In this document: in pieces, positions 1 to 255 of the stretch | Layout of the letters: each line of letters starts with the position of its first letter | Numbering within the stretch: position 1 is the first letter of the stretch | Source: Escherichia coli | Lineage (GTDB): Bacteria; Pseudomonadota; Gammaproteobacteria; Enterobacterales; Enterobacteriaceae | DNA length: 255 nucleotides | Direction: 5' to 3' (one strand) | Assembly (NCBI RefSeq): GCF_003334385.1 | Contig: NZ_QOWN01000219.1 | Notes under the pieces: model-generated | The model's database searches: none | Told to the model about the DNA's origin: nothing | What the model saw: the letters and a program-made list of their open reading frames with translations, nothing else | Position numbers and translations under genes: made by a program

Positions 1-149
1 GCCGGATAATGTTCCAGGAATTGCCAGTGAAATTTTGCGCGGGCGCGACGTTCATCACCGGCTTCAATGGCAGTGGCTACAGCGACTGCACCTTCTTCCT
101 TTATTGCCTGTTCGTCCGGAATGGCGGCGCAAATAAAGACTTTACTCAT
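1..149 (-). CDS. 5' portion (49 codons, incomplete at window edge) of a protein-coding gene; product not recognised (hypothetical protein). N-terminus: MSKVFICAAIPDEQAIKEEGAVAVATAIEAGDERRARAKFHWQFLEHYP...
   Basis: Manual translation of the reverse complement: ATG at complement(147-149), open frame through position 3 with no stop (positions 2-1 begin the next codon). A GAGGT Shine-Dalgarno lies 8 nt upstream of the ATG. An in-frame TAA (complement of 156-158) three codons upstream rules out a longer N-terminal extension. Codon choice is mostly common enterobacterial-type codons (GCC, CCG, GAA, CAG, CGT, CGC), with one rare ATA. GC is about 52% in the ORF versus about 38% upstream. No transmembrane-length hydrophobic segment or lipobox, so probably cytoplasmic. 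Identity was not established; no search was possible. Confidence 0.75.
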   Translation of the reverse strand, partial: MSKVFICAAIPDEQAIKEEGAVAVATAIEAGDERRARAKFHWQFLEHYP

Positions 150-157
150 TTTGTTTT

Positions 158-162
158 ACCTC
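158..162 (-). promoter_or_regulatory. Shine-Dalgarno / ribosome-binding site (GAGGT) for the minus-strand CDS
   Basis: The + strand reads ACCTC at 158-162, which is GAGGT on the minus strand. It is followed by an 8-nt A-rich spacer (AAAACAAA) and then the ATG at complement(147-149). This is a canonical match to the anti-SD core with canonical spacing. Confidence 0.7.
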
Positions 163-190
163 ATTACAGATTTAAGGGTGAACAAATCCC

Positions 191-204
191 TGCCATTGCT
201 GGCA
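191..204. repeat. Perfect 5-bp inverted repeat TGCCA-N4-TGGCA (spacer TTGC on + strand); candidate operator or short hairpin, function unknown
   Basis: Read directly from the sequence: 191-195 TGCCA and 200-204 TGGCA are exact reverse complements. The repeat does not extend (190 C against 205 T). Its centre lies about 48 bp upstream of the minus-strand start codon. The confidence is for the repeat existing as a sequence feature, not for any function. Confidence 0.5.
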
Positions 205-255
205 TATAAGAATGAAACCGGATATTTATTACGGAACTGTTTTAAAGACCTGCCG

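Follow-up and report, generated by a model that had tools for sequence, protein, structure and literature searches.

Results

Location and gene layout of the window

The DNA analysed here is a 255-nt stretch of Escherichia coli, and this whole stretch is called the window throughout. Its minus strand is 100% identical to lambdoid prophage DNA in 3,987 of the 5,426 complete E. coli genomes, a single genome having as many as 7 such copies, and phages such as mEp460_ev081, HannyBb and the PPompW group show 92–99% identity to it. The locus of E. coli ABU 83972 (L001) was used as the reference, in which a window position equals 5256 minus the L001 position. The annotation of L001 gives the order dicB (4638–4826), ydfD (4823–5014, DUF1482), a gap of 92 nt, a gene for an 823-aa 'exonuclease' (5107–7578), xis and int, and the phage record has the same gene order. 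According to this annotation of identical DNA, the minus strand of the window begins with the last 14 nt of ydfD, continues through the spacer and ends 149 nt into the exonuclease gene.

The 3' end of ydfD occupies window positions 242..255 (minus strand), as in the RefSeq annotation of identical DNA, and is translated as AGL followed by the stop. The gene reads ...NNEIPAGL in frame c(253), with its TAA at c(244..242), and its product matches Pfam PF07358 (DUF1482; E 4e-25, residues 4–61) as well as PHROG 1092. YdfD has been described as a 63-aa lysis protein of the Qin prophage (PMC8835842; PMC10448788). The C-terminus of YdfD varies in relatives (window 242..250; L001 5008–5014), where loss of 1 nt turns CTTTAAAA into CTTAAAA, so that the stop disappears and KTAP extends the protein to 67 aa, while another allele ends in PAG; the end of ydfD therefore tolerates indels. 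An antisense ORF of 201 aa lies opposite dicB–ydfD (L001 4439–5044, minus strand of the reference) and is probably spurious.

The exonuclease gene contributes its first 49 codons and 2 nt (MSKVFICAAIPDEQ...) at window 1..149 (minus strand), with the annotated ATG at c(149..147), 8 nt after the Shine-Dalgarno (SD) sequence GAGGT. The Rv2179c-like 3'-5' exoribonuclease domain (Pfam PF16473) was detected at residues 642–813 of the 823-aa product. Although annotated as 'exonuclease' or 'exodeoxyribonuclease VIII' (L001 5107–7578), the gene does not encode a full RecE, as the RecE model matches it only in part (279 bits against a cutoff of 1269, residues 447–625) and the C-terminus is a Rv2179c-like DEDD domain. 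The ydfE gene of K-12 is an IS2-truncated remnant of this gene. Opposite the exonuclease start, a 66-aa antisense ORF (window 9..209, plus strand) had no PHROG match and is probably spurious as well.

Between the two genes lies a non-coding spacer of 92 nt (window 150..241, minus strand) in a Qin/PPompW-type lambdoid prophage, where it is part of the early-left (dicB) operon. It carries no annotated feature in L001 or in the phage record and contains no ORF of at least 20 aa on the minus strand. The existing annotation of ydfD, gap and exonuclease gene is right, and there is no hidden coupled gene.

Spacer anatomy across relatives

Related loci were compared after anchoring 80 of them on the exonuclease N-terminus, 120 on a 20-mer and 80 on RacC. 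The comparison divided the spacer into four layers, namely an upstream-linked part, an invariant block with its tail, a shared leader and a gene-specific end, all described here on the minus strand. The segment at window 241..206 is variable and travels with the upstream gene, being replaced by unrelated sequence where the upstream gene differs. It is followed at 205..185 by the essentially invariant 21-mer ATGCCAGCAATGGCAGGGATT, in which TGCCA-GCAA-TGGCA can form a hairpin (204..191), and then at 184..175 by a semi-conserved tail that reads TGTTCACCCT in the window and YNNWCAMYCT across classes, and that can form a weak second stem (AGGG/CCCU). The leader at 174..158, ending in GAGGT at c(162..158), is common only to loci in which a 3'-5' exonuclease or RecE-like gene (MSTDKEE...) comes next, and one class (L124) diverges just after GAGGTT. 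The last 8–9 nt before the ATG and the coding sequence are gene-specific.

The predicted fold of the whole-spacer RNA was no more stable than those of shuffled sequences (z = +0.37). No promoter was found on the sense strand of the spacer, the sole match lying on the other strand, at a level that chance would give. When 1.1 kb or only the spacer was scanned against Rfam, in two prophage types, nothing was detected in the spacer (best 8–14 bits against thresholds of at least 37). The 1.1-kb scan identified DicF upstream with 76.7 bits (L001 4412–4463). Directly after this full match, a sub-threshold match to STnc100 (38.7 bits against a gathering threshold of 47, E 1e-6; L001 4461–4670) spans the dicF–dicB spacer and the start of dicB.

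Distribution of the invariant 21-mer

The 21-mer at window 185..205 corresponds to L001 5051–5071, and to 3502–3522 and 4939–4959 in two other loci (L205 and L325, respectively). Its hairpin has a 5-bp stem and a GNRA loop. The element is present in a single copy per locus at one fixed operon position in Rac/Qin-type prophages, 24–88 nt after the upstream stop and 44–56 nt before the next ATG. Since it is single-copy, its reading as a repeated intergenic linker was rejected. At least five kinds of genes lie upstream of it (two YdfD alleles, YdaE in two forms, a Kil-like protein of PHROG 294 and another small protein) and at least seven kinds lie downstream (3'-5' exonuclease, RecE-like, RacC, PHROG 2016, PHROG 2434, an unassigned 117-aa protein and a RacC-like protein of Citrobacter), with 12 upstream-by-downstream gene combinations in 163 distinct contexts. 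In phage Rac-SA53, for example, the order is kilR-ydaE, 21-mer, racC-recE. When Citrobacter braakii was compared with Rac-SA53, the 21-mer was identical at 21/21 positions, and the flanks showed 77% identity in the ydaE-like CDS, 60–61% in the two parts of the spacer and 63% in the racC-like CDS.

A search of species-representative genomes gave 38 matches, among which true relatives were found in Escherichia and Citrobacter only; in four further cases the match was to E. coli prophage DNA within an assembly that is mislabelled or contaminated, and the remaining ones were chance matches in unrelated taxa. Spacer-bearing E. coli prophage DNA occurs in L292, L294, L305 and L307 under the labels of a Proteobacteria MAG, Terrisporobacter mayombei, a Candidatus Nanosynbacter MAG and a Lachnospiraceae MAG, and also in PP818812.1, a record named 'Actinobacillus phage'. 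These odd taxon labels are probably due to contamination or mislabelling. In one viral contig (L087) the 21-mer is followed by GTCAGATTCTGACC..., and the sequence is unlike any class from 7 nt beyond the 21-mer onward, directly behind GGGATTTGTTCA. It has no downstream gene start, and it looks as if a deletion or insertion had its breakpoint in the tail of the element.

On the basis of the combinatorial flanks, we read the 21-mer as a mosaic joint, that is, an identity patch where host-killing and recombination blocks would exchange. An identical short block lies at a gene boundary and its unrelated flanks occur in varied combinations. Short conserved sequences are known at the mosaic joints of lambdoid phage genomes (lambdoid and P22/HK620-type), where they belong to modular evolution. 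The 21-mer resembles them as a short identical boundary block between unrelated and variously combined flanks, but it differs in its single fixed position, in its invariance at every base, in its GNRA hairpin and in its placement, which is 44–56 nt upstream of the next start rather than at the ribosome-binding site itself. Literature searches with the 14-mer string, with racC/ydaE/sbcA and with conserved boundary sequences found no description of the element, and the full-text match to the 14-mer was unrelated.

Possible function of the 21-mer

The 21-mer is possibly an mRNA element in addition to being a joint. The spacer may thus be non-coding and yet functional, with the hairpin acting as a processing element, a 3'/5'-end-stabilising element, a weak terminator or a pause element that separates kil/dicB–ydfD from the recombination block. 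This proposal is compatible with an untranslated spacer, to which it adds a function, and we consider it possible but rather unlikely. The perfect conservation of the 21-mer amid diverged flanks argues for it, and so do the variants: the loop is GCAA, GAAA or GCGA, all of the GNRA type, and 2 of the 3 stem changes are C-to-U, with G.U pairing kept only on the sense RNA. Against this, no compensatory double changes were observed, one variant breaks the stem and another breaks the GNRA loop, the stem is only 5 bp long, 40-nt constructs fold at -7.5 to -11.5 kcal/mol and are only marginally more stable than shuffled sequences (z -0.4 to -2.6), and no Rfam family matches. A simple scan flagged the site as terminator-like (TGCCAGCAATGGCA followed by GGGATTTGTT), but about 0.9 such sites per kb are expected by chance, the 5-bp stem is followed by an interrupted U-run, and the RacC and other classes lack the U-run. 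Northern blots of K-12 have been interpreted as showing that a transcript ends behind ydfD and that ydfE is not contained in any longer species (PMC10448788), which likewise speaks for a role in the mRNA; since ydfE of K-12 is cut by IS2, however, this result may reflect instability.

Readings of the 21-mer as a tRNA-like element, a sigma-54 site (GG-N10-GC) or a boxA were examined by eye and rejected, as the spacing or consensus did not agree and there was no match to tRNA or any other Rfam family. The 21-mer shares a 5-bp hairpin with a GNRA-type loop with the lambda nut site (boxA + boxB) and the rrn boxB-boxA arrangement, and the RacC class has CGCUCAAC after the hairpin, resembling boxA CGCUCUUA. 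It differs from a nut-type antiterminator site in that the hairpin precedes the boxA-like part, whereas the order in lambda is the opposite. The boxA-like octamer is found in some classes only and is not conserved (UGUUCACC in the window), and the element lies deep in the operon between the kil/dicB block and the recombination genes, not close to the early promoter. The operons that carry the 21-mer showed no N-like gene.

Judging from the sequence comparison, we tentatively put forward, at somewhat less than an even chance, that early-left operons of the Rac/Qin type have in the 21-mer a cis-acting element not described before. This element would be either a hairpin for mRNA processing, stability or termination control or a protein-binding site, and would be selected at the border of the host-killing (kil/dicB–ydaE/ydfD) and recombination blocks rather than being a passive recombination scar.

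Short ORF beginning at the 21-mer

Cross-class conservation of the spacer starts exactly at an ATG (window 205..203), which opens a 13-codon ORF in the third frame, MPAMAGICSPLNL, closed by a TAA at 166..164, 1 nt before GAGGT. Such a leader ORF might modulate translation of the exonuclease gene, and every class has either an ORF of 10–19 codons here or an in-frame run into the downstream gene. We nevertheless regard this modulation as very improbable. The ATG lacks a preceding SD in all classes, and its TG lies within the hairpin stem. In the six codons that follow, the third bases are the same across diverged classes including Citrobacter, variants within a class are non-synonymous in most cases (6, with 2 synonymous), and the length and end of the ORF differ between classes. 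This pattern fits constraint at the nucleotide level rather than at the peptide level. Owing to the missing SD, the invariant third positions, the non-synonymous variants and the variable end, a leader peptide was rejected as the main explanation of the spacer, and translation of any very short ORF in it, such as these 13 codons, appears unlikely.

Open frame upstream of the exonuclease gene

An earlier note on this DNA had pointed to a minus-strand frame, c(254..159), that is open for 32 codons up to a TAA at c(158..156), and its observations were reproduced. The translation was exactly GRSLKQFRNKYPVSFLYASNGRDLFTLKSVMR before the stop. The frame is that of the exonuclease gene (254 - 149 = 105), and the TAA (window 156..158, minus strand) shares a T with the SD, overlapping the last base of GAGGT at c(162..158) upstream of the ATG at c(149..147). 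The GC content, given as about 38%, was measured as 38.4%, and the frame has three AGG and two TTA codons as reported. A random chance of about 20% had been estimated for 32 open codons, which is of the right order of magnitude: in 20,000 shuffles, the probability for one frame was 0.10–0.12 when the local composition was used and 0.17 when that of the 2 kb around it was taken, and it rose to 0.32 for any of the three same-strand frames and 0.54 for any of six frames. One antisense frame is also open over the whole 106 nt. The 32-codon open stretch (window 156..254, minus strand) is thus a chance stretch of AT-rich non-coding DNA, expected in about 1 of 10 cases.

The alternative considered in the earlier note was that an AT-rich upstream gene ends in the open frame and is translationally coupled to the exonuclease gene by the overlap of TAA and GAGGT. 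The 32 open codons in the window, the stop overlapping the SD and the presence of this overlap in 57% of related loci could be taken in its favour, but the reading has almost no credibility left. Extension of the sequence beyond position 255 revealed TAA TAA at L001 4987–4992, 9–14 nt outside the window, which gives an open stretch of 35 codons in all. The only start codons inside it are a TTG (9 codons) and an ATG (2 codons), neither of which is usable, and no ORF of at least 20 aa was listed for it. A PHROG search with the 35-aa translation gave no family at E ≤ 0.01. Variable sites were counted in 52 distinct relatives whose upstream gene is of the ydfD type, and at codon positions 1/2/3 they numbered 8/6/5 in the open frame, 18/11/54 in the first 100 codons of the exonuclease gene and 22/19/34 in ydfD. 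The open frame thus has no third-position bias, and such bias begins at the exonuclease ATG, c(149..147).

Nonsense and frameshift variants were also frequent in relatives, for which the counts are approximate since some contigs entered twice: an in-frame TAA (AAT AAA to AAT TAA) is present in 31 of 145 related loci, the overlap of TAA and SD is kept in 82 of 144 (57%), a +1 T between SD and ATG (GAGGTTAAAAC) occurs in 57 of 144, and a further deletion was found in 5 of the 144. The +1 T abolishes both the overlap and the frame identity with the gene, as it shifts the open frame off the gene's frame and places its stop at +5 within the gene. Where relatives have a different upstream gene, unrelated DNA takes the place of the 5' half of the open stretch. 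The actual upstream gene is ydfD, in another frame. The stop shortly past 255 and the lack of protein-level conservation, which the earlier note had itself named as decisive, refute the coupled gene, and its preference for an intergenic region is borne out by the upstream stops, the lack of a coding signature, the missing PHROG match and the breakage of the frame in relatives. Where it had left 156–255 as either intergenic or part of an upstream gene, positions 150–241 proved to be non-coding, while 242–255 are coding but belong to ydfD, in the other frame and uncoupled.

There is likewise next to no chance that programmed -1 frameshifting extends ydfD into the open frame, giving a longer YdfD whose stop overlaps the exonuclease SD: relative to ydfD, the open frame is in the -1 register and free of stops from L001 4993 onward, a position that precedes the ydfD stop by 19 nt, but no X XXY YYZ slippery heptamer was read by eye in ...GAA ATC CCG GCA GGT CTT TAA, the CUU-UAA resembles the prfB +1 site although the +1 frame adds only 4 codons (KTVP and a stop), and the frame has no downstream coding signature and is interrupted in relatives.

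The SD polymorphism is located at window 157/158 (L001 5098/5099), between GAGGT and AAAAC, where loci read either GAGGTAAAAC or GAGGTTAAAAC, with an SD–ATG spacing of 8 and 9 nt, respectively. In a few loci, K-12 among them, one A is lost in addition to the T that is gained, giving GAGGTTAAAACAAATG.

Discussion

In this study, window 156–255 (minus strand) was examined as the possible 3' end of a gene coupled to a prophage exonuclease gene. We hold with high confidence that it is not: the region comprises the last 14 nt of ydfD and then belongs to a 92-nt untranslated spacer. The finding is an ordinary one and is already reflected in public annotation. The early-left (dicB-operon) polycistronic transcript of the Qin/PPompW-type lambdoid prophage would carry the spacer untranslated, and ribosomes would load de novo on the exonuclease gene at GAGGT-N8-ATG, where we infer independent initiation at the SD. 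The TAA overlapping GAGGT would then be an accidental in-frame stop.

In coupled junctions, a stop overlaps or abuts the next start or SD, as in ATGA. The likeness here is a stop overlapping the downstream SD; the difference is that no translated ORF brings ribosomes to this TAA, since the real upstream gene ends 92 nt earlier. As ydfD is in a frame other than the open frame and its stop lies 92 nt before the exonuclease start, the two genes are not coupled. A true translationally coupled junction is found one gene upstream, where dicB and ydfD overlap in ATGA (L001 4823–4826) with AAGGA 8 nt upstream, in contrast to the junction between ydfD and the exonuclease gene.

The ydfD–ydfE region of the K-12 Qin prophage (dicBF operon) is the same type of locus with nearly the same sequence as the window, and ydfD and ydfE have been treated as consecutive genes of the dicBF operon (PMC10448788, PMC11430063). 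A K-12-derived locus (L204) has ydfD, a 92-nt spacer with the same hairpin and the same exonuclease N-terminus. The two differ in that the exonuclease gene of K-12 is truncated by IS2 to the pseudogene ydfE, whereas it is intact with 823 aa at the window locus, and in the SD, where K-12 has the GAGGTT variant with a 1-nt deletion (GAGGTTAAAACAAATG) and the window reads GAGGTAAAACAAAATG.

The open-frame question itself matters little, as its answer confirms the annotation. The conserved 21-nt hairpin block is a modest lead, since thousands of E. coli prophages have it, perfectly conserved, at this junction, while the flanking genes differ. It offers a concrete site for studying module exchange in lambdoid prophages, and it bears on whether expression of the toxic kil/dicB/ydfD genes is separated from that of the recombination genes.
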